64,000 bases of DNA from an uncultured Actinomycetes bacterium. GTDB taxonomy: Bacteria > Actinomycetota > Thermoleophilia > UBA2241. The position numbers were made by a program, and so were the translations under genes. A model generated the notes under the pieces. That model ran no database searches, had not been told where the DNA came from, and was given only the letters and a program-made list of their open reading frames with translations. Below, in pieces: positions 10,689 to 34,578 of the stretch. Every line of letters starts with the position of its first letter. The first letter of the stretch is position 1. The stretch lies in NCBI GenBank assembly GCA_963725665.1, contig CAVRZA010000011.1:320001-384000 (forward strand), written 5' to 3'.

Positions 10689-11432
10689 TCATCGGGCGCT
10701 GGCCGCGGCGAGGCGTCGCTTCATCTCGTGGGCGAGGAACGAGGCCACCTCGACGGGCGTGGTGCGCGGGCCGAAGCCCGCGTCGTAGCCAAGCTCCTTG
10801 GCGAAGGCGTTGTTGATGCGCGGGCCGCCGACGATGAGGACGAACCGCTCGCGCACCCCCTCGGCCTCGAGAAGCTCGATGAGCTTGGTCAGGTTCTGCA
10901 CGTGGATGTTCTTCTGTGTGACGATCTGTGACACGAGGATGGCGTCGGCCTCGCGCTCGAGGGCGGTCTTGAGGAGCTGCTCACAGGGGATCTGCGAACC
11001 CATGTTGAGGGCGTCGATCTCGGGATAGCGCTCGAGACCGTAGTTGCCGGCGGCACCCTTCATGTTGAGGATGGCGTCGATCCCTACGGTGTGGGCGTCA
11101 CTCTCGATGGCCGCGCCCACGACGCTGAGCTTGCGGCCGATCCGCTCCCTTATGTAGGCGTTCACGGAGTAGTAGTCCATCACCTCGACGTCAAGGTAGT
11201 CGCCCTGCACCTCGTCGGGGTCGATCCCCACCTGGGCGCGGCCGTAGGCCACGAAGAAGGTGAACGCGGGGTCGATGCCCCGGGCCTCGGCGACCGCGAC
11301 CTCCCTGAAGCCCAGCTTCTCGAGGAACTGCTTGCCGACGTCGGCCGCCTTGGCGGAGTAGGCGATGGGCAGGGTGAACGAGAACTGCATGATGCCGTCG
11401 TCGCGCGTGTCCCCGTAGGGTTTGACGATCAT
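10689..11432 (-). CDS. kamE: Lysine 5,6-aminomutase beta subunit (B12-binding)
   Basis: KPYGDTRDDGIMQFSFTLP; base-off motif DAHTVGIDAILNMKG; GLERY; SQIVTQKNIH. Confidence 0.95.
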   Translation of the reverse strand: MIVKPYGDTRDDGIMQFSFTLPIAYSAKAADVGKQFLEKLGFREVAVAEARGIDPAFTFFVAYGRAQVGIDPDEVQGDYLDVEVMDYYSVNAYIRERIGRKLSVVGAAIESDAHTVGIDAILNMKGAAGNYGLERYPEIDALNMGSQIPCEQLLKTALEREADAILVSQIVTQKNIHVQNLTKLIELLEAEGVRERFVLIVGGPRINNAFAKELGYDAGFGPRTTPVEVASFLAHEMKRRLAAASAR

Positions 11433-25195: not shown

Positions 25196-25750
25196 CTAGG
25201 GCGTTGCGGTCGGCGTCGGTGTCACGGCGCCGGGGAGGGTGCCCGGCACCGTGCCGGGATTCACCGTTGCGCCTGGTGTCGGGGTCACCCCCGTAACGGG
25301 CGGGGTCGTGGTCCCCGTCGTGGGCACCGAGCCGGTGGGCGCCGTGGCGCCGGTCGGGACGTACACCGTGGTGCCGTCGGCGAGCTGGTAGAACTGGCCG
25401 ATGAGTGTGCCGACGCCGCTGACCTGCTGGCCTGGCTGCAGGTTGAGCTGCATGACCGAATCGCCCTTTTTGACGATCACCTGCATGTCGCTCTGGCCCG
25501 GGTTCTTGACGATCGTCATGTCCTTGCTCGAGAGCACGTCGGTGAGGCCGACGCCGGCCAGGGCGGCGAGAAGGAAGGCCACGGAGAGGATGATGGCTAC
25601 GTCGAAGAGGTTGACCACGCCGTCGAGGGGGTCGCCGTTCTTGTCGGTCTTGCTCACGCGGCGCCGACCCATGTAGCGCAGGCCGCGCCCGGGCTCCTCG
25701 AGAACGGACGGCGGGTAGGACACGACGTTCTCCTGCACGTTTGGGCTCAC
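25196..25750 (-). CDS. DUF2149-family single-TM protein (ExbD/MotB analogue) with Pro/Thr tail
   Basis: DPLDGVVNLFDVAIILSVAFLLA, IVKNPG, G-x-x-YQLADGTTVYVP; GTGA overlap with the upstream gene. Confidence 0.8.
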   Translation of the reverse strand: MSPNVQENVVSYPPSVLEEPGRGLRYMGRRRVSKTDKNGDPLDGVVNLFDVAIILSVAFLLAALAGVGLTDVLSSKDMTIVKNPGQSDMQVIVKKGDSVMQLNLQPGQQVSGVGTLIGQFYQLADGTTVYVPTGATAPTGSVPTTGTTTPPVTGVTPTPGATVNPGTVPGTLPGAVTPTPTATP

Positions 25751-26766
25751 GCCTCGTCGCCTCCCTCGCTCGAGCCGGCGCGAGGCGCGGAGGCCTTCTC
25801 GCCGGGGGAGACGATCTCGAGGGCCTCCGTCTCGGCGCCGACGAGGGCATCTTCGTTCGCGTCGAGCGGCGTCACGGCCGATCCCAGCCCGGGATCCGGC
25901 GTCGCCTCCTCGAGATCGCGGCCGCCGATGACGTCGGCCTGCTCGACGTGCACCATCCGCCGCTCGGCCTCGGCGGCCGCGTCGGGCAGCAGGCCGCCGA
26001 CGTCGGCGACGAGGATATCCTGTTGGGCGGCGATGCCTTCTTCGGCGATCGCCGCCTCGAGCTCCTCGTCCTCGGGCGACTTCGCCTTGCCACCGGCACG
26101 TGCGCCGCCGCCGCTGCGGAGCCGCTGGCCGCTGCCCTCCAACAGCTCGAGCAGGTACTCGAGGTCTGAGATGTCCTGCGAGTAGAGGCGGTCGCGCAGG
26201 ATGCTGATGGTGAAGGCGAGGCCTCCGATGAGGAGGCCGATGACGGTGACAGAGAAGGCGATCTCGAGCTGGTTGGCAAGCGTCGCCGTGTCGTTGTTGG
26301 CCAGCGCCTCGAGTGCCGGCGCCAGCGGGATCAGGGTGCCCATCAGCCCGAGCATGGGGCCGACGCGCACCAGTATGCGCGTCTTCTCGAGCCGCTTGAT
26401 GGTGTAGAACTCGTACTCCTGCAGCAGCTTGAGCGGCTTCTCGGCGAGGCGTTGCCCCTGGTAGTTGCGGATCAGGTCGAAGAGAAAGCGCACCACCACC
26501 ATCGAGTAGTTGTTCTCCTGCAGATAGCGGTACGCCTTGCGCGGCTGTCCATTGCCGAAGGCCTCGCGCGCGCGCAGGGTGCGGATCTCGAGGGCGTCGA
26601 GGTCGCGGTAGCGCACGCGCAGGTAGACCTCGTAGAAGAAGTAACCGAGCTCGACCAGGACCCAGATCAGGCAGACGATGGCCGCGATCAGCACCGGATA
26701 GAGCAGGAGCTTCGCGATGGTGAAGATGACCTGCTCTATGTCGTGCGCGAGCCCGGAGGTGTCCAT
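25747..26766 (-). CDS. MotA/TolQ/ExbB proton channel family protein
   Basis: RVGPMLGLMGTLIPL...IAFSVTVIGLLIG; acidic C-terminal tail. Confidence 0.85.
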   Translation of the reverse strand: MDTSGLAHDIEQVIFTIAKLLLYPVLIAAIVCLIWVLVELGYFFYEVYLRVRYRDLDALEIRTLRAREAFGNGQPRKAYRYLQENNYSMVVVRFLFDLIRNYQGQRLAEKPLKLLQEYEFYTIKRLEKTRILVRVGPMLGLMGTLIPLAPALEALANNDTATLANQLEIAFSVTVIGLLIGGLAFTISILRDRLYSQDISDLEYLLELLEGSGQRLRSGGGARAGGKAKSPEDEELEAAIAEEGIAAQQDILVADVGGLLPDAAAEAERRMVHVEQADVIGGRDLEEATPDPGLGSAVTPLDANEDALVGAETEALEIVSPGEKASAPRAGSSEGGDEA

Positions 26767-26779
26767 CCGCGCGGGGCTC

Positions 26780-28605
26780 CTACCGTTTGAGAGTCAGGGC
26801 GCTGGAGATGCCGAAGACACGCGCCTTGAACTGCTCCCACGGCGTGCCGCCGCCGAGGAGGGCGCGGCCGTTGCCGGCGCCCTCGAGGGCGGCCGCCTGA
26901 CGGCGGTGTGCGACGTACGAGACCAGCGCGCCGAGCGGCAGCAGGGCGACGAGCCCGAGGCCGATCCAGCCGGCTGTGCCGGACCCTCCTCCTTGGCCGT
27001 TGGCCGCTGCCTGCCCCGTCACGCTCGCCGAGGGCGAGGGCTGGGCGCCGGCGGTGAGGGGTGCGCCCGGCGATGCGCTCGGCGAGGGGCTGAGGGGAGT
27101 GCCGGTTACGGTGCCGGGCACGTAGGTTCCGGTGGTGGCGGTGGCGGTCGGAGTCGGCGTCAGAACGCCGGGCGTCGTCGGCGTGGAACCGGTGCCGGTC
27201 CCGCCTGAGCTGCTCGGCGGGCGATAGGTCGGAGTCGACGGTGAGGTCGGCGTCGTGCTTGGAGTCGAAGGCGCCGGCGCGGGCACGTTGACGGTGAACG
27301 AGCGCGTGCGCGAGAGGCTGTTGCCGGCCCGATCGGCGATGCGGATGATGACGGTGTGGGAGCCGTTCTTGAGCCCCGTGAGCCTGAGGGCGAGCGAGCT
27401 CGTCTTGATGGTAGCGGCCTTCGTCTTGTTGACGCCGTCGACGGTGACGCGCACGGCGCTCACCTTGATCCCCGTGCCTCCGACGTTGTCGCCGTAGGTC
27501 GCCTTGACGTCGACGGTGCTGGTCTTGAACGTCGGGTGGCCGCTGGGCGAGATGGAGTCGAAGTGCGGCCTGAAGGCTCTGTTCGTCGGGTTGTTGGAGA
27601 GGCCGAAGGGGAAGGGCTTCTGGGCCAGGGCGATCACGGCTTGCGTCGTCGTCATCAGGGGGTTCGAGATCGCACCCACGCGGTGCGCGAAGAGCCCGGA
27701 AGGCTGCTGCAGGCGGCGCAGGAAGCTGAGTGGGGTGTTGCTGCCCTTGTTCCACGACGACGGCGACTGGCCGCAGGCGACGATGGCCTGGGTGGCCCAG
27801 GCCGTCGACTCGGCGTAGCTGCGCCCGTCGGTCGGCATCGACGGGAAGCCGCCGTCACCGCGCTGTGCCGACTTGAGGTAGGCGAGGGCGTCGACGATCA
27901 CGGGGTTCGACGCGCCCATGCCGGCGCGATTGGAGAACGACGCCCGCAGGGCCATGACGGCCGCCGCCGTGTCGTCGACGTCGCTGGCCGAGCTCGGCTG
28001 GCTGCCGAAGCCTCCGTTGCCGTTCTGTTGCGCGACGAGCCAGGTGATGGCGCCGTTGAGGCCGCCATCGGTCTCACCGGCCGCCTTCAGGGCGAGGATT
28101 GCCCAGATCGTGGTGTTCACGGTCGCGTACGGGTTGGTCGCAGTCGAGCCTGAGGGAGAGAAAGCTCCGGTCGTCGTATTCTGGTAAGAGTGCAGCTTGG
28201 CGACCAAGTCGATGCCCTTGGTACCCGCAGACCAGATGAGGTCGACTCTCCCGGCTGCGATGTACGCGAGCATGACCTTCGCATAGAAAGCGGGTCGGTT
28301 GACCAGGCTCGAAGAGCTGCCCGCGGCGGCCTCGAGATCGAGGCCCTGGAGGTAGTCGATGGGGTCCTTGCCGCCCTGGTTCCACGCGACTTCTGCGGAC
28401 TCTCGCCGGCTGCCGAGATGGCCATGATCGCCCAAGGCGTGATCTGCACGTCGGCGGTCGAGCCCGTGCCGAAGCCGCCCGACGAGAACTGCTTGGCGTG
28501 GAGGTAGTCGAGCGCGCGTGTCTGCGGGCTGGCCTGTGCGCCAGCGGGGAAGACGGCAAAGACAACGAAGGCCAGCAGTAGCGCCGGCCATACTCTCCTG
28601 GTCAC
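26780..28605 (-). CDS. Cell-surface prenyltransferase/squalene-cyclase-repeat (alpha/alpha barrel) protein with Ig-like domain, Pro/Thr stalk and C-terminal TM; frameshift near 28387
   Basis: Signal peptide and ALDYLHAKQFSSGGF in ORF 28117..28605. The protein continues in the other frame with WLVAQQNGNGGFG, DVDDTAAAVMAL, YLKSAQRGDGGF, FLRRLQQPSGLF, and ends WIGLGLVALLPLGALVSYVAHRR. Confidence 0.8.
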
Positions 28606-29426
28606 GACAGGTCCTCCAGTCCCACGAAGGTGACGCGGGTCCGGACGCGGAACCGAGCCACGATTCTAACAGCCTGCACGCCGAAAAGGCCAGCAAAGAC
28701 GGCAGTAGCCGCCACGTGTGCGAGGTCAAACGGCAGGCCCCGCGCGTAGAGCGCGACGAGGGCCGGCCACGAGTGCGCCGTGAAGGCGACGTACATCCAG
28801 AGGGTGACGAACCAGTCGAACGCCAGCGCCAGAGCGGCGCCGGCGGCGACGAGCTCCCAGCGGTGCGGCACGCGCCCGCCGCGGCCGAGCAGACCGCCGG
28901 CGACGCCGACGCCTCCCCAGGCGAGCATCTGCCAGGGCGTCCAGGGGCCCTGGCCGAAGAAGACGTTCGACACCAGCGCCGATGTCGCACCGACCATGAA
29001 GCCGGGGGCCGGTCCGAGGGCGACGCCCGAGACCAGCACGATGAAGGTAACCGGCTTGACGTTGGGCAGAGCCGCGAAGAGTACACGGCTGGCCGTGGCG
29101 AGCGCCGCCAGCGAGGCGACCAGCGAGAGTTCCTGGGCGGAGGCGTCGCGGGCGCCGTAGAGGGCCAGCGCGGTGGCCGCGAGAGCGGCCACCGCGAAGA
29201 ACGATACGGCGCCCCAGTCGACGGAGCCGGGGCTCACAACGGCGTAGACGGCCAGCCCCACGGCGAGCGCGACGAGGCCGGCCAGGACGAGACGGCTGGG
29301 CCGCACGGGCAGCGTGGCGAAGAGGCGCGCGAGCGACGCGCGCAGGCCCGTCGGCGCGACCCCGCCTCGCGGCGCGCCGGCGCCCGGACCAGACGCGGCC
29401 GGCTGCGTCCTGGCGAGCACGTTCAC
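28602..29426 (-). CDS. ECF transporter S component, CbrT-like (cobalamin)
   Basis: SRVLFAALPNVKPVT...GFMVG...SNVFFGQGPWTPWQMLAWG...GLPFDLAH; under a B12 riboswitch. Confidence 0.88.
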   Translation of the reverse strand: MNVLARTQPAASGPGAGAPRGGVAPTGLRASLARLFATLPVRPSRLVLAGLVALAVGLAVYAVVSPGSVDWGAVSFFAVAALAATALALYGARDASAQELSLVASLAALATASRVLFAALPNVKPVTFIVLVSGVALGPAPGFMVGATSALVSNVFFGQGPWTPWQMLAWGGVGVAGGLLGRGGRVPHRWELVAAGAALALAFDWFVTLWMYVAFTAHSWPALVALYARGLPFDLAHVAATAVFAGLFGVQAVRIVARFRVRTRVTFVGLEDLS

Positions 29427-31111
29427 GACATCCTCCAGCGGAGCTGGTCCTCGTGCAGCGCGCCCGGAAGCGAGTGGCGCAGGAGGCGGTTGAGCTGGGT
29501 CGAGAAGAACAGCGACCCGTCGAGCACCTCGGCGGTGGGGCCGTCGGCGAGGACGCGGCCGTCGCCGAGGATCACCACGCGGGTGGCGAAGCGGGCCGCG
29601 AACTCGACGTCGTGCGTGACGACGAGCACGCCATGCCCCTCCTGGGCCAGGCGGCGCAGCCTCCTGCCCAAGTCGGTCTTGTGGCCCGGGTCCATGCCGC
29701 GCGTTGGTTCGTCGAGGACGAGCAGCGCGGGGTCGCCGACGGCCACCGCGGCAAGCGCGACCCGGGTGCGCTCGCCTCCGGAGAGGTCGCGCGGGTTGCG
29801 CGCCAGCAGACCGTCGAGGTCGAAGGCGACGATGGCGCGGGCGAGGAGTGCCTCGCGCTCCTCGCCCGCGCCGACGCCCAAGGCGTCGAGGCTGTAGTCG
29901 AGCTCTTCCGCGACCGTGTCCTTCACGAAGTAGTCGTTCGGGTTCTGTCCCAACAGCGCGCAGGAACGCGCCGCCTCGGCGACGGTCAGGTCGCGCACGT
30001 CGCGTCCCAGGAGCAGCACCCGGCCCTTGCTTGGACGTGAGAGACCGTTGAAGTGTTTCACCAGGGTCGTCTTGCCGGCGCCGTTCTCGCCCATAAGCGC
30101 GATCACCTCGCCGCGGCCGACCTCGAGGTCGATGCCCTCGAGCACGGGCTCATCGCGGTCGTAGCCCGCGACGAGGCCTCTGACGCCCAGGAGCGCGTCG
30201 TGTGGGGAGCCGGGCGATGCGACCAGGCCAGCTTCGTCTGGCTCGACGAAGCTCAGCGGCACCTGTTCGCCGGCCGTCGTCTCCTCGAGTATCCGGCGTG
30301 CGTCTTTGACGGTCATGGGAAGGCGCCCTCCCAGGGGTCCCCGGCCGTTCATCGTCTGGGCGAAGAGACGCGTGACGGGCGGCAGCAGTTCGCGTCGGCG
30401 CCCGGCGGCCCAGAGGGCGAAAGCGTCGGGGTGGTCGTCGCGCACGAGCGCGCCGTCCTCGAGGTAGACCACGCGCGTGGCGAGGTGCAGGCAGCGCTCG
30501 ACTCGGTGCTCGGCGAGGACGATCGTGGCGCCGGTGTCCTCGGAGAGGCGGCGGACGGCGGCGAGCAGCTCCTCTGAGCTCACGGGATCGAGCTGCGATG
30601 TGGGCTCGTCGAGCAACAGGAGGTGCGGCTGGGTCGCGATCACGGCGGCGAGAGCGACCTTCTGCAGCTCGCCTCCCGAGAGGGTGGCGAGCTCGGCGTG
30701 ACGCAGGTGCGAGAGGCCGAGCGAGATCAGGGCCTCTTCGACCAGGCGGGTGACCGCGTGCGGCTCCACGCCGAGGTTCTCGAGGCCGAAGGCGATCTCG
30801 CGCTCGACGGTGGTCATCACGGCCTGGCTCTCGGGATCCTGGAACACCAGGCCGACCTCGCCGGCCAGGTCGCGCGGCTGAGCGTCGCGTGTGTCATGGC
30901 CGCCGACGACGACGCGACCGGCGAACGTGCCGCCGTGGAAGTGGGGCACGAGGCCTGCCAGGGCACGCAGCAGGGTCGACTTGCCGCTGCCCGATCCGCC
31001 GAGCAGCAGCACGACCTCGGCGGGCTCGAGGGTGAGCGAGACATCGCGCAAAGACGGGTGCTCCCGCCCGGGGTAGGTGTACGTGACGCGCTGTAGCTCG
31101 GCCACCCTCAT
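29423..31111 (-). CDS. ECF transporter duplicated ATPase
   Basis: GGSGSGKST, VFQDPESQ, LSGGELQ, LDEPTSQLD; second domain GENGAGKTT, LSGGERTR, LDEPTRGMD. ATG 31111 overlaps the upstream TGA. Confidence 0.93.
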   Translation of the reverse strand: MRVAELQRVTYTYPGREHPSLRDVSLTLEPAEVVLLLGGSGSGKSTLLRALAGLVPHFHGGTFAGRVVVGGHDTRDAQPRDLAGEVGLVFQDPESQAVMTTVEREIAFGLENLGVEPHAVTRLVEEALISLGLSHLRHAELATLSGGELQKVALAAVIATQPHLLLLDEPTSQLDPVSSEELLAAVRRLSEDTGATIVLAEHRVERCLHLATRVVYLEDGALVRDDHPDAFALWAAGRRRELLPPVTRLFAQTMNGRGPLGGRLPMTVKDARRILEETTAGEQVPLSFVEPDEAGLVASPGSPHDALLGVRGLVAGYDRDEPVLEGIDLEVGRGEVIALMGENGAGKTTLVKHFNGLSRPSKGRVLLLGRDVRDLTVAEAARSCALLGQNPNDYFVKDTVAEELDYSLDALGVGAGEEREALLARAIVAFDLDGLLARNPRDLSGGERTRVALAAVAVGDPALLVLDEPTRGMDPGHKTDLGRRLRRLAQEGHGVLVVTHDVEFAARFATRVVILGDGRVLADGPTAEVLDGSLFFSTQLNRLLRHSLPGALHEDQLRWRMS

Positions 31112-32112
31112 CGCCATGGTCCCCGTGCGCGATCCCAGATCGACGGCAGTGACAGCCAGACGACCGGAAGGACGAAGCAGGCGAGCGTGAACAGCCAGAC
31201 GGGGTCGAACAGCCCCGGCCAGGGGTCGTCGAGCAACGGGTAGTAGCCGTAGCGGAACAGGCCGGCCACCAGACCACCGACGAGAGCGCAGCCCGCCAGG
31301 AGCGCGAGCAGGCCGGTGAGGAGGTCGATCGACCGCCGTCGCCGATCGCGGCGCCAAAAGGTGCGGCCGGGGCGGCCGTAGCCGCGCGCCGCCATCGACT
31401 CGGCGATGTCCATAGCGCGCTCGAGACTCTGCGTGGAGAGGGCGGCGAGAAGCGGCAGGCGCGCCGCGATGCGCTCGCGCCTGCCGCCGGCGTCGAGCTC
31501 GATGCCGCGCGAGCGCTGGGCGTCGGCGATGCGCCGTCCGTCGCGGCTCAGCACTGGGAAGAGCCGCGTCGCCAGGGAGACGATGAGGCCCGACCGGAAC
31601 GAGAGGCGCGACAGGAGCTCGAGCTGGTCGTCGGTGTCGAGGACCACAGTGTAGAGGGCGAAGGCGAGCACCACGACCGCGAGGCGCAAGGCCGTGCCGA
31701 GGCCGAAGGCGATGCCCTGGATGGTCACCGTGGGATGCCAGAAACCGAGATCGAACTGCCAGAGCACGTCGAGACCGGCGGGGCTGAAGAGCGGGTTGAG
31801 GATCGCCAGGAAGAGCCCCGTCGTTAGAGCGATCATCAGATATGGAAGGGCGGCGCGCAGGCGGCCGGCCGTGGCGAGGATGACGAGCTCGAGGACGAAG
31901 AGCACGGCGAGCTGCAGCGGATTTCCGATAACCAGGCCGGCCGCCGCCAGCGCCGCCACGTAGGCGAAGCCGGCCACAGGGTGCAGGCGGGCGAGGCCGC
32001 GCCGCGGGCGCGGCCTCGCCCGCCTGCCGACCCGCGCGGATCGCTGCGCGCTCGGGCGAGCTGCAGGCCCGGCGACGCGGGGCGCAGCGACCGCGCTGTC
32101 GAAACCGGTCAC
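31108..32112 (-). CDS. ECF transporter T component (in frame with the upstream lipoprotein as sequenced)
   Basis: LHPV, RLFPVL, IADAQRSRG, SLERAMDIAESMAARGYG; has its own GGAGG + GTG at 32112. Confidence 0.88.
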   Translation of the reverse strand: MTGFDSAVAAPRVAGPAARPSAQRSARVGRRARPRPRRGLARLHPVAGFAYVAALAAAGLVIGNPLQLAVLFVLELVILATAGRLRAALPYLMIALTTGLFLAILNPLFSPAGLDVLWQFDLGFWHPTVTIQGIAFGLGTALRLAVVVLAFALYTVVLDTDDQLELLSRLSFRSGLIVSLATRLFPVLSRDGRRIADAQRSRGIELDAGGRRERIAARLPLLAALSTQSLERAMDIAESMAARGYGRPGRTFWRRDRRRRSIDLLTGLLALLAGCALVGGLVAGLFRYGYYPLLDDPWPGLFDPVWLFTLACFVLPVVWLSLPSIWDRARGPWR

Positions 32113-33102
32113 TTGGCCTCCACCATCGGGAGTGCCGCGAGCGGAAGTCGCTCCGCTGGGCAGGTAGAGGGCCACGTGGTGCGCGAGGCTCTCCGGAGTC
32201 AGGCCGTTCAGAAGCGCCGGCACATCCTGCGGACCGTTGACGAGGAGGACGAGCAGCTTTGCTTCAGGGCGCGCCGGGTTCGCCGTCGCGAACGCCACAC
32301 CCGCTGCCGGCGTCCCGGCGGCCCCGGACGCCGCGAGGGGCAGTATCCGTCCCCCAGCGACCTTGGCGAAGACACCGGACGACGGCCCGTAGTCGAGAAT
32401 GGTGCGCAACCACGGCAGACGCAGTGCGGCGTCGGGTGTGGCGGCGATGACGGCCCAAGTCCGAGGCGGAGACGCGCTCAACGACGATCCATTCGGCGTC
32501 TGTTGGCTTGCGGTGCGCAGGCCCGCCGACTGCAGCCAGGCGACGATGGGCGCGCCGAGACCGGCGGGGTCCGTCGAGGCGACCCGGAGCGGATGTCCGG
32601 CGAAGGGCGCCGGGAAGGCGTCGAGCGAGACGGGGATGAACATCGCCCCGGCCCAGAGGTGGTAGTCCCACCACACCGTCTCACCGCCGCGCAGCCGCCA
32701 GGCGTCGGCGCCCACGTCGGCCATGACGCCGTCGACCCAGTAGAACCAGTCGGCCGCGTTGGCCGAGGAGACCGAGCCAAAGGTCGAGCGCAGGCCATCG
32801 ATGCCGCTGACGAACTGCCCTCCGTAGCCCGTGTCGACGGTCGCGTGCTCGGCCAGCAGGCGCATGACGGTCATGTCCTTCTTCCACGGCGCGACGGTGT
32901 CGACGAGCACCGAGGCGCCGAAGTCGCGCGTGACTACAAGGCGCACCTCGGCGGCCGCGGGCCGGTGGCCCGCGGCCGCCGCAGACGCGGTCTCGGTCGA
33001 TCCGGAGCGCACGCCGGCGCAAGCCGATGCGGCCACGGCGAGCAGGGCCGGCAGCACGACGAGCGCAAAAGCGTTCCGACGTGTCTTCCATCGCGATCTC
33101 AC
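32109..33102 (-). CDS. DUF4430 (transcobalamin beta-domain-like) lipoprotein
   Basis: Lipobox LAVAASAC; VTRDFG; GYGGQFVSGIDG...DWFYWVDGVMADVGA...GETVWWDY. Confidence 0.8.
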
Positions 33103-33145
33103 CTGTCGGCCACCCGGGGCGCTGCTTTCCTCGTGTACCCGGACG

Positions 33146-34228
33146 TCAGCGAGCGGTGACCATCAACGGCACCGTGTCCGAGCGTCCCCAACCGTCGGTT
33201 GCGGTAAGGCGCAGGCGATAAGTGCCAGCAGGGACGAGACGCCCGCCGGAGGTGCGCCCGTTCCATGCGATGACCCGTCTTCCGGCGTTCTTCGCCGCGC
33301 TGACGGCAGCCAGAAGGACACCGGAACGTGAGCGGACTGTGAGCCGCACGTGCGCTGCCTTCGGGAGATCGAATGCGACGTGCACCGCGTCGACGCCAGG
33401 CACGAATGGGTTGGGCCGGGCAACGACGCGAGAGAGCTTGGGTGCCACGGAGACGTTGACGAGGACGCGCGTCGAGCGCACGTACGTGAACTGCGCGTCC
33501 GTGGCCTTCTCCGCCCAGACACCAGTGGTGCCGGCCGGAACGGCGTCGACCGTGATGGTGCCGTCCAGCGCGTCGCCGTCAGCGCCGTCGACGTACACCT
33601 GGTTGCCGATGTGGAGGGTGGCGCCCGTAATGGCCGGGAACGCGGCCGGCGCGACGACGGTACTCGGGGAGACCTTGAAGCGGTCGGCGTCTGCGTTGCT
33701 GTTCGGTGCGCTCAGCGCGTCGCCGACGACGGTGAACGTAGCCGCCTGGCCGGGCAACAGTGCCTTTGAGGGGGCGACGCGCACGACGAGCAGGTAGCTG
33801 TCCGGGGTGAAGACCGGGCTCTGGTAGAAGACGACCTTGTCGCCGGCCAGCAAGGTGAAAGTGAAGGCGCCGACGTCGATGTTGGGGAAGCCGGCGCCGT
33901 TGACGGCGTACATCCAGGAGTCGAGGCCGGCGATGGCCGACACGTAGTCGCCGCCGAAGCCGGTGACGAAGGTAAAGCCCTTGGGCTGAGCCACCTTGGC
34001 CAGGGCCCCCAGGGCGCTCGCATGGGTGACCGGGTAAGTGTTGGCGGGGGTCGCCGAGTCGGTGATGCTGCCCGTGGAGGGCACCGATACGGCCGTCCAA
34101 GGCGCGACCTGGTAGGCGCTGGCCTCGACGCGAATCGAGGCTTTGACCGCCGCCGAGGCGGCGGGGACGATCGTGAGCCCTGCGAGAAGGACCAGGATCG
34201 TCGCTAGAAGAACTGTGCGTGGTGCCAT
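33146..34228 (-). CDS. Secreted protein with DUF4430-like domain and C-terminal FlgD-Ig-like domain
   Basis: AAAGGAG + ATG 34228; signal peptide; YVSAIAGLDSWMYAVNG...VGA...LLAGDKVVFY; PNPF...WNGRTSGGRLVPAGTY. Confidence 0.8.
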   Translation of the reverse strand: MAPRTVLLATILVLLAGLTIVPAASAAVKASIRVEASAYQVAPWTAVSVPSTGSITDSATPANTYPVTHASALGALAKVAQPKGFTFVTGFGGDYVSAIAGLDSWMYAVNGAGFPNIDVGAFTFTLLAGDKVVFYQSPVFTPDSYLLVVRVAPSKALLPGQAATFTVVGDALSAPNSNADADRFKVSPSTVVAPAAFPAITGATLHIGNQVYVDGADGDALDGTITVDAVPAGTTGVWAEKATDAQFTYVRSTRVLVNVSVAPKLSRVVARPNPFVPGVDAVHVAFDLPKAAHVRLTVRSRSGVLLAAVSAAKNAGRRVIAWNGRTSGGRLVPAGTYRLRLTATDGWGRSDTVPLMVTAR

Positions 34229-34380
34229 GTGAGCTCCTTTCCGGGCGCGGGATGTCTCCCTCTCCTCCGTACGAAGCTCCCCTGGAACCGCAAAGACCCC
34301 GCCGCTCTCGCGACGGGGTCCTCCATCTCGTACCTGCCGTGCGCTCGAGAACCCATCCGCGTGGGGAGCAGCTTCGCATG

Positions 34381-34578
34381 GCGGCTTGGCAGGTTTTCTG
34401 GCTCCCGGTCGCACCTGAGACTCAACAGCCCCCGGCGTCGGCCGTCGCTACCTTCCCGGGCGCTACGGCCCAGTGGCTCCTCTACAGAGGACTAGCGACG
34501 GACGCGACCGGTCACAGCGGCGGGACCGCGCCGGATTCGCACCGGCTTCCCTTTTGTCCGAAGGGCACCGTAGCCGCG
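34381..34578 (-). ncRNA. Cobalamin (AdoCbl) riboswitch
   Basis: Minus strand AGGGAAGCCGGTGCGAATCCGGCGCGGTCCCGCCGCTGTGA...GCCACTGG...GGGAAGG...B12 box GAGCCAGAAAACCTGCC; candidate -10 TAGCAT at 34601-34606. Confidence 0.93.

Follow-up and report, generated by a model that had tools for sequence, protein, structure and literature searches.

In animals, transcobalamin and intrinsic factor clamp one B12 molecule between an alpha/alpha toroid and a beta-domain of the DUF4430 type (PMC1796856), and DUF4430 has been recognized as the C-terminal domain of transcobalamins (PMC4350170). In bacteria, Burroughs et al. (2007, PMC1796856) described SLBB domains of the transcobalamin type that are joined to alpha/alpha toroids; paralogous SLBB pairs occur in operons with CbiO and CbiQ in organisms lacking B12 synthesis, for which B12 scavenging was predicted, and toroid and SLBB domains were argued to cooperate in B12 binding. 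On the import side, the energy-coupling factor (ECF) transporter ECF-CbrT of Lactobacillus delbrueckii (PDB entry 6FNP) takes up cobalamin and cobinamide (PMC5997447), and in Bacteroidota an ExbB-like protein paired with a DUF2149 protein closes the Hmu heme operon, where the role of the pair is unsettled (PMC10434189, PMC12094164, PMC12583661). Here we describe an operon in which counterparts of these elements stand together. It was found in a window of 64,000 nucleotides from an uncultured soil or sediment actinobacterium (contig CAVRZA010000011.1), and it consists of a cobalamin riboswitch followed by genes for two DUF4430/SLBB surface proteins, an ECF importer with a CbrT-like substrate-binding (S) component, a stalked toroid protein and an ExbB-like/DUF2149 pair. 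With moderate confidence we read it as the sole corrinoid-uptake operon of a B12-dependent host, equipped with a toroid capture arm and a motor pair. The strength of this reading differs between its parts: family assignments, conserved gene order and domain fusions make it highly likely that riboswitch-controlled capture by SLBB and toroid proteins feeds CbrT, with import by EcfT and the fused ATPase EcfAA', whereas a role for the motor pair is proposed much more tentatively.

The window (69.5% G+C) belongs to a 3.73-Mb, 12-contig metagenome-assembled genome (MAG) rated 97.5% complete, whose nearest named relatives are MAGs of uncultured Thermoleophilia (Actinomycetota). The reading units of the operon were defined by third-position GC, maps of open reading frames (ORFs) and Pfam matches, which gave seven protein units after the riboswitch (G1 to G7), all on the minus strand. 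They are tightly coupled by GTGA overlaps at G3/G4, G4/G5 and G6/G7 and by an ATGA overlap at G2/G3. Both this coupling and all the elements listed in an earlier, sequence-only reading of the window were recovered, the elements by Rfam and Pfam searches; the span given there needed a small correction, as the 5' end of the riboswitch lies 15 nt past its end coordinate.

The match of the riboswitch aptamer (RF00174; 34371..34593, minus strand) spans the full Rfam covariance model (1-189), and its 83.1 bits (E 5.6e-19) exceed the gathering score of 31.5. RF00174 is the only Rfam family matched in the whole window, and a genome scan returned this single match, so that the operon carries the sole cobalamin riboswitch detected in the host genome. 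The G1 start follows the aptamer at a distance of 143 nt, and between the two a terminator-like hairpin with a 9-bp GC-rich stem, a GAGA loop and a T-rich tail was read from the sequence (34286..34318, minus strand). This hairpin is likely the expression platform; a scan for consensus terminators did not flag it. PF02310, the B12-binding domain, is matched 27 times in the host genome, and CbiB, CobS and CobN are not matched at all, an absence that in a MAG of this completeness is not proof. These 27 matches, the missing late synthesis genes and the single riboswitch suggest that the host has a high demand for corrinoids, relies on uptake and appears unable to finish cobamides itself. Separately, many of the PF02310 matches fall in ORFs of 170-300 residues, the size of small corrinoid proteins, and one lies inside the window (10749-11126, minus strand).

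The importer comprises the C-terminal part of G2, G3 and G4. The EcfT part of G2 (31108..32112, minus strand) belongs to the CbiQ family by Pfam (61 bits, G2 residues 373-577). A T component of a cobalt system was rejected for it, since its score against the cobalt CbiQ equivalog TIGR02454 (43.6) falls below the cut-off of 111.8. G3 (29423..31117, minus strand; 564 aa) is a fused EcfA-A' double ATPase with two ABC_tran stretches (202 bits in Pfam), and it exceeds the cut-offs of both NCBIfam models, ECF_ATPase_1 (344.5 bits, cut-off 315) and ECF_ATPase_2 (337.2 bits, cut-off 330). G4 (28602..29426, minus strand; 274 aa) has six hydrophobic or transmembrane (TM) segments and Pfam matches to ECF-ribofla_trS (35 bits) and DUF6580 (32 bits); its sole PDB match is chain A of 6FNP (E 3.5e-14, query residues 97-261 against chain residues 9-174). 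An EcfT, two EcfA domains and an S component are thus encoded together, as in ECF transporters with a dedicated module, and the ECF importer with a CbrT-like S component announced by the earlier reading is borne out by the 6FNP match and the ATPase models. From its context, namely the riboswitch and the lack of late B12-synthesis genes, G4 is predicted to bind and transport cobalamin or cobinamide. ECF-CbrT of L. delbrueckii likewise combines an S component, EcfT and two ATPase domains, but there a 182-residue S component relies on a shared ECF module, whereas the module in the window is dedicated, riboswitch-controlled and has fused ATPases. Additionally, no extracytoplasmic helper is mentioned in the available part of that description (PMC5997447), whereas the operon in the window has three surface proteins and a motor pair.

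The two DUF4430/SLBB proteins are encoded at the head of the operon. G1 (33146..34228, minus strand; 360 aa) is a secreted protein that starts at an ATG with AAGGAG upstream and has a signal peptide, seen as one TM or signal segment (residues 6-24). According to Pfam it ends in a FlgD-type immunoglobulin (Ig) domain (FlgD_ig, 35 bits), and its DUF4430 score of 22.8 bits is just below the cut-off of 23.8; its orthologues score 32-37 bits. The N-terminal part of G2 (32083..33102, minus strand) is a lipoprotein whose signal peptide ends in a lipobox Cys (residue 28 as the mature Cys), followed by DUF4430 (46 bits in Pfam, residues 78-148) and by a second domain matching no named family; all except one of its 93 homologues carry the PF14478 annotation. 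The sequence-only reading had listed a lipoprotein and then EcfT, and both are present in that order, although within one 664-codon ORF in which they are in frame with no stop between them. The same frame without a stop is found in locus L020, whereas in L013, L017, L019 and L024 lipoprotein and EcfT are separate genes in different frames. A GTG at 32112 inside the G2 ORF, with GGAGG upstream (GGTGGAGG), is likely the own start of EcfT. A certain lipoprotein-EcfT fusion was therefore dropped on account of the four relatives and the internal start, and the single ORF is ambiguous as to whether one fusion protein or two proteins are made.

Compared with the operons of Burroughs et al. (PMC1796856), the locus likewise encodes two secreted SLBB/DUF4430 paralogues, a toroid and CbiQ/CbiO-type proteins in an organism lacking late B12 synthesis. 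The operons described there contain toroid-SLBB fusions, whereas the window has a separate, stalked toroid beside a motor pair; in the available text ExbB/MotA is absent and fusions to S components are not mentioned. A split transcobalamin, which the earlier reading had put forward as the best candidate for an undescribed system, is not new as an idea, since B12 scavenging by SLBB and toroid domains was already predicted in 2007 (PMC1796856). More generally, earlier publications cover the riboswitch, ECF-CbrT and B12 scavenging by SLBB plus toroid, be it by experiment or by prediction.

The toroid gene, G5 (26780..28605, minus strand), was assigned from Pfam and from the fold of an intact orthologue. 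Its product would consist of a signal peptide, a (alpha/alpha)6 toroid of ~300 residues (Prenyltrans/SQHop_cyclase in Pfam), an Ig domain (Big_13), a stalk, a C-terminal TM helix and a conserved cytoplasmic tail of ~42 residues. The stalk has 108 residues, among them 24 Thr, 20 Pro, 18 Gly and 16 Ser. The same layout, with a low-complexity stalk and a conserved tail, is found in 14 intact orthologues. Barrel and beta-domains are encoded by separate genes, as the earlier reading had it. In the animal carriers the two domains form one chain; in the window they are separate proteins, the toroid has no PF01122 match and its nearest folds are terpene cyclases.

Domain fusions indicate with whom the toroid works. 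Among 113 toroid homologues (E <= 1e-5), nine carry ECF S-component Pfam domains, and three (P0037, P0047 and P0091) are Pfam-confirmed toroid-DUF4430 fusions; P0091 also has a Cobalamin_bind match (PF01122, 34 bits over 44 residues) and is the lone toroid homologue with one. Starting from the S component, 1643 matches of 481-2000 residues were obtained, and 115 of the best 120 contain toroid domains. It follows that an S component and a toroid in one chain (S::toroid) is apparently the usual state of this S subfamily, which in the host family is split; the S component of the window is 69% identical to P0032 over 218 residues and 45% identical to P0039 over 154. Judged by these fusions, the tightest partner of the toroid is the S component and not DUF4430.

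The neighbourhoods of these genes point in the same direction. DUF2149 is present in 20 of 24 genomes of the host family compared with 17 of 401 sampled from the phylum. When 17 loci around DUF2149 were fetched from the host family and compared with the proteins of the window, toroid, ExbB-like protein and DUF2149 were adjacent in 15, and the full eight-part set was found in six, each with a cobalamin riboswitch directly upstream of G1. A wider survey of 80 loci was seeded with the ExbB-like alignment and was thus centred on the motor and not on the toroid; in the 19 closest loci the toroid stands next to the ExbB-like gene in 18 and the full operon occurs in four. Six riboswitch loci represent other families within the class and the one genus of the host family that lacks DUF2149. 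All six have the order riboswitch, DUF4430, DUF4430, EcfT, EcfAA', S component and toroid, and none of them gave a match to the ExbB-like protein or to DUF2149; in two, S component and toroid share one open frame. The toroids of these motor-less operons end right after the toroid domain in three cases and have a 75-132-residue tail with a TM helix in the other three. The unit of riboswitch, two DUF4430 genes, ECF genes, S component and toroid is therefore found in 16 loci besides the window (6/17, 4/19 and 6/6), and the conserved linkage anticipated by the sequence-only reading exists. This 16-locus unit, the S::toroid fusions and the toroid-DUF4430 fusions make it likely that the toroid is part of the B12 capture apparatus.

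On the other hand, the proton motor did not hold up as a fixed part of the B12 system, since it is missing from all six of these operons and elsewhere is kept with the toroid alone (9/17 loci). The toroid is retained in motor-less B12-ECF operons and the motor is linked to it in one family, which suggests two layers: a B12-ECF unit including the toroid that is widespread in the class, and an ExbB-like/DUF2149 pair that, as far as these neighbourhoods tell, is a separable, family-specific add-on.

Several findings weigh against the overall reading, beginning with the distribution of the trio of toroid, ExbB-like and DUF2149 genes. In nine of the 17 loci the trio occurs with no ECF gene, DUF4430 gene or nearby riboswitch, and it lies there between parB and a GT2-GT1-LPG_synthase_TM-DUF2079 cluster. 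The 24 family genomes divide into 11 with DUF2149 and DUF4430, nine with DUF2149 and no DUF4430 match, three with DUF4430 only and one with neither. The S component of the window, used as a query, matched nothing in five DUF2149-positive, DUF4430-negative genomes (four trio-only genomes and G007, which has no toroid match), so that the trio works there without a B12 importer as known here; in four of the five, cobalamin riboswitches precede cobU-cobT-cobS-cobC, and in two of these four also an amino-acid-permease-family gene. The window has the same flanks as the trio-only loci, with parB converging on the 3' end of the operon and GT2 and GT1 glycosyltransferase genes diverging from its 5' end, and in other organisms the motor pair stands beside PKD, CARDB or FG-GAP surface proteins with no B12 link. 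The operon might then be made of two unrelated modules, a B12 importer and an older envelope trio that has nothing to do with corrinoids and is read through from the operon upstream. We consider this improbable, since the toroid follows the S component in all six motor-less B12-ECF operons, is fused to S components and to DUF4430 in other proteins and overlaps the S-component stop with its own start by GTGA; these observations make the toroid itself a part of the B12-ECF system, and only the motor could be foreign. As an observation apart, in two genomes an amino-acid-permease-family gene (544-581 residues) directly follows a cobalamin riboswitch (L127:251-1993 in G019 and L130:288-1919 in G022), and in L130 it is followed by a gene for an 816-residue protein with no Pfam match; the riboswitch-led permease gene could encode another B12-regulated transporter.

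A second group of points on this side concerns the kinship of the toroid. The toroid of the L017 orthologue was modelled with high confidence (predicted local distance difference test, pLDDT, 96.3; predicted template-modelling score, pTM, 0.93), and in searches with Foldseek and VIA-align it matched squalene-hopene cyclase at Z 26.2 with a root-mean-square deviation of 3.3 over 273 residues. Class II terpene cyclases come first in the structural ranking, followed by prenyltransferase beta subunits, epimerases and complement thioester domains. Terpene cyclases are therefore the nearest solved folds among the matches listed, and transcobalamin is absent from the best 50 structural matches (all with Z >= 21) and from the best 60 of 111 PDB profile matches (E <= 10) of the toroid profile. 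The toroid of the window has no PF01122 match at E <= 0.01, and searches of the PDB with phmmer, using the lipoprotein of the window and P0091, returned no match to transcobalamin or intrinsic factor. The transcobalamin-like barrel of the earlier reading is thus right as to the (alpha/alpha)6 toroid fold and not as to its closest relatives: the modelled toroid and the transcobalamin alpha-domain fall into one fold class, though not necessarily as close relatives.

An enzyme, either a class II terpene cyclase or a prenyltransferase, might be expected from the best sequence and fold matches, which are squalene-hopene cyclase and drimenyl diphosphate synthase; the toroid of the window reads DVDD where cyclases carry their acid motif, and P0005 is named 'terpene cyclase/mutase family protein' in a source database. 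Nevertheless, the DxDD general-acid motif is present in just 15 of 77 aligned homologues and is absent from the modelled L017 toroid, and a signal peptide in 14 of 14 intact orthologues places the domain outside the cell. With the fusions of the toroid family to ECF S components and DUF4430 added, an enzymatic role is very improbable.

The assembly of toroid and DUF4430 proteins in trans, which the earlier reading had envisaged, agrees with the natural fusions of the two domains and receives weaker backing from a complex prediction. Residues 1-305 of the L017 toroid and the mature DUF4430 lipoprotein of the same locus gave a score of 0.56 compared with 0.35 for the best control; the three runs scored 0.56, 0.01 and 0.60, shared at least 1% of contacts and gave a pLDDT of at least 78 for the partner. 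The pass mark was calibrated on solved complexes, of which 116 of 157 pass it, and on mismatched pairs, of which 2 of 215 do; at scores up to 0.60 it was passed by 18 of the 157 solved complexes and also by both passing mismatches. With one of three runs at 0.01, which again weighs against the overall reading, the verdict was 'weak'. Binding between toroid and DUF4430 is accordingly graded as a prediction with weak support, and the pass may reflect likeness to the solved one-chain transcobalamin only.

The toroid gene of the window is itself frameshifted. Its signal peptide and first helix pair are encoded from 28605 to ~28400 and the rest at 28396-26780, with a frame change of one base near 28396-28400; if this change is real, no toroid protein is made in the host. 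G5 would then be a pseudogene, and uptake would be left to the DUF4430 proteins and ECF-CbrT alone. The frame switch, the lack of a stop-free reading across both pieces in the standard code and the whole gene of the relatives speak for a pseudogene, as both pieces lie in one ORF in 13 of the 14 relatives in which both were found (L023 is broken elsewhere). Both pieces nevertheless keep a high third-position GC and conserved residues, the genome is a 12-contig MAG, and split two-frame matches also occur in the EcfAA' genes of L061, L063 and L064 and in the toroid gene of L023. Since other MAG loci show split matches of the same kind, an assembly indel is at least as likely as a real mutation, and a pseudogene in the host seems rather unlikely. 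Frame breaks are in general common across these MAG assemblies. The contigs of four public runs over 27800-29000 leave 28386-28466 uncovered, and a run search returned no sequencing run with more than 0.25 of the sampled words.

The last points to be weighed concern the motor pair. G6 (25747..26766, minus strand; 339 aa) is an ExbB/TolQ/MotA-family protein by Pfam (MotA_ExbB, PF01618, 34.9 bits with a cut-off of 22.9) with TM segments at residues 20-38, 131-149 and 163-181 and an acidic C-terminal tail. It is the sole MotA_ExbB match of the host genome; its PDB profile matches are weak (MotA at E 0.0095, ExbB at E 0.36), and 19 sequences show no or almost no variation in the stretch GP.xGLMGTLIPL. 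G7 (25196..25750, minus strand; 184 aa) is a DUF2149 protein (80.3 bits in Pfam) with one TM segment (residues 51-69), a small outer domain rich in beta structure and a Pro/Thr tail. In 36 DUF2149 sequences from bacteria and archaea, N24 and F26 are invariant and D27 is conserved in at least 90%; D27 belongs to the NLFD stretch at the start of the TM helix, and we take this membrane Asp to be placed like the essential membrane Asp of ExbD/TolR. The family is small, with 909 representative clusters (E <= 0.001) among 1.84 billion. To be counted on the negative side, DUF2149 gave no match to PF02472 (ExbD/TolR) at E <= 10, where only DUF2149 itself and noise were returned, and its PDB profile found no ExbD, TolR or MotB, the best match (E 0.59) being noise; a protein atlas likewise returned no usable match for it.

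ExbB-ExbD-TonB and TolQ-TolR-TolA also combine a three-TM MotA/ExbB protein with a single-TM partner bearing a conserved membrane Asp, and TonB and TolA, like the toroid protein, add a third protein with one anchor, an extended Pro-rich linker and a globular outer domain. The orientation is opposite to that of TonB, as the toroid has its anchor at the C-terminus and its globular domain at the N-terminus, and DUF2149 is not detectably ExbD by sequence. Additionally, the host genome gave no match to TonB_C (PF03544) or to the TonB-dependent receptor (PF00593), for which three diderm controls were positive, and no outer-membrane genes were found in it; the description of the motor as 'TonB-less' therefore applies in this nearly complete genome. 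The Hmu system (HmuY-R-S-T-U-V) of Porphyromonas and Bacteroides is similar in that a MotA/TolQ/ExbB and DUF2149 pair lies in an operon for tetrapyrrole acquisition (PMC10434189, PMC12094164). Unlike the window, Hmu belongs to diderms and includes a TonB-dependent receptor and a CobN-type dechelatase.

By analogy with these systems, the ExbB-like/DUF2149 pair may work on the toroid anchor as ExbB-ExbD does on TonB, a proposal that we make tentatively. It draws on the constancy of the neighbours and on the motor staying with the toroid when all else is gone, as well as on the architecture of the toroids: all 14 motor-linked ones have the Ig domain, stalk, TM helix and conserved tail, whereas the motor-less ones lack or shorten these parts. 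The whole operon would then function as follows. When B12 is scarce, the riboswitch would permit transcription of all the genes; corrinoid would be collected at the cell surface by the DUF4430/SLBB protein, the DUF4430/SLBB lipoprotein and the stalked toroid, and handed to the CbrT-type S component, with EcfT and EcfA-A' powering import with ATP. That the toroid and SLBB proteins bind corrinoid and hand it on, we infer from their families, fusions and gene order. In the host family, the toroid would have become detached from the S component and gained an Ig domain, a stalk, an anchor of its own and a conserved cytoplasmic tail. The ExbB-like/DUF2149 pair would be a proton-driven stator acting on the anchored toroid, and its job may be to release tightly held corrinoid or to bring it to the S component.

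The motor pair also occurs far from the host family, and its surroundings there bear on what it energises. ExbB-like and DUF2149 genes are neighbours in all 16 distant actinobacterial loci and in 57 of the 61 distant loci, and the large surface protein beside them differs. In low-GC Actinomycetota (L032-L034) the pair follows a giant CobN (1642-1810 residues) and DUF2162, a layout that resembles Hmu with no receptor gene. In loci of the Solirubrobacterales type a PKD protein lies upstream, and an ATP-binding cassette (ABC) permease (BPD_transp_1) and an ATPase are often encoded within ~2 kb downstream; this motor-plus-ABC arrangement recurs in L029, L039, L043 and many of L065-L125. In L045 the pair stands beside another toroid, and in anaerobic methanotrophic (ANME) and Methanosarcinales archaea beside CARDB/PQQ giants, with CobQ next to it in L101. 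The Firmicutes MAG locus L090:2285-19421 contains three DUF3344 genes, the ExbB-like and DUF2149 genes, EcfT, another DUF3344 gene, an ABC_cobalt membrane protein gene, EcfAA' and CobN; its gene content makes it another, independent example of the motor pair within an ECF operon, this time together with a chelatase. Two of the DUF3344 trio in L090 have SLH domains, and one of these also has CARDB. In different lineages (L030, L072 and L099) a regulator with helix-turn-helix (HTH) and PBP_like (PF12727) domains is encoded a few genes upstream of the pair. L050, labelled Deltaproteobacteria, has the toroid-ExbB-like-DUF2149 trio with an ExbB-like protein 76% identical to that of the window; its label or the binning of the MAG is probably wrong.

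From the constant pairing of the two motor genes in these distant loci, always with a different large surface protein (giant CobN with DUF2162, PKD, DUF3344/SLH or CARDB/PQQ), and from the ABC permease and ATPase that follow the pair in Solirubrobacterales loci, it could be argued that the motor energises another step than one on the toroid, such as turnover of the S component, release from DUF4430 or secretion or anchoring of surface proteins through the wall, the pair accompanying whatever surface protein requires it. In the host family, by contrast, the toroid is the only constant neighbour of the pair, the motor remains with it where all ECF and DUF4430 genes are missing, and an anchor and conserved tail are found on the motor-linked toroids and are absent or short on the motor-less ones; a different target thus seems quite unlikely. 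Action on the toroid anchor can also be extended to a general reading, in which the stator holds the C-terminal anchor and conserved tail of the toroid and, driven by the proton gradient, pulls or twists the stalk, strips very tightly bound corrinoid from a transcobalamin-like clamp formed by toroid and DUF4430 and delivers it to the S component, and in which the pair serves as a general power unit for tetrapyrrole and metal uptake assisted by surface proteins in monoderm bacteria and archaea. The ExbB-like/DUF2149 pair would then be the monoderm and archaeal counterpart of the diderm Ton system, working beside CobN, PKD, DUF3344 and CARDB proteins. This extension is speculative, and we hold it to be unlikely in its full form.

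In the open-access papers searched we found no report of the predominance of S::toroid chains or of a split, stalked toroid, and none of a toroid coupled to an ExbB-like/DUF2149 pair in an organism without a match to TonB or to a TonB-dependent receptor; nor did they connect such a pair with B12 uptake in bacteria that have no outer membrane. Papers on DUF2149 contained nothing on ECF or B12 by title or abstract, no paper on DUF6580 was found, and among the papers listed none dealt with a linkage of ExbB, CobN, archaea and ECF or with an ECF transporter joined to a prenyltransferase-type protein under a cobalamin riboswitch. To our knowledge, ECF transporters are usually described as having no extracytoplasmic binding proteins; the B12-type S subfamily, with its 1643 longer homologues, has a large outer toroid domain in the same chain or encoded beside it, together with two transcobalamin-like beta-domain proteins, and the papers found describe no test of any of these proteins. 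The operon is probably essential to the host, because the latter appears to be a heavy B12 user unable to make B12, and it is relevant to how B12 is exchanged in soil and sediment communities. If the toroid and DUF4430 proteins bind corrinoid, the animal B12 carriers would have in them their counterpart in bacteria and perhaps their origin, as was already suggested in 2007. A Ton-like proton motor acting on a ligand-capture protein in a monoderm would, if true, put the 5:2 motor family to a new use, and it would give DUF2149, equally enigmatic in the Hmu heme system of gut and oral Bacteroidota, a function that can be tested.

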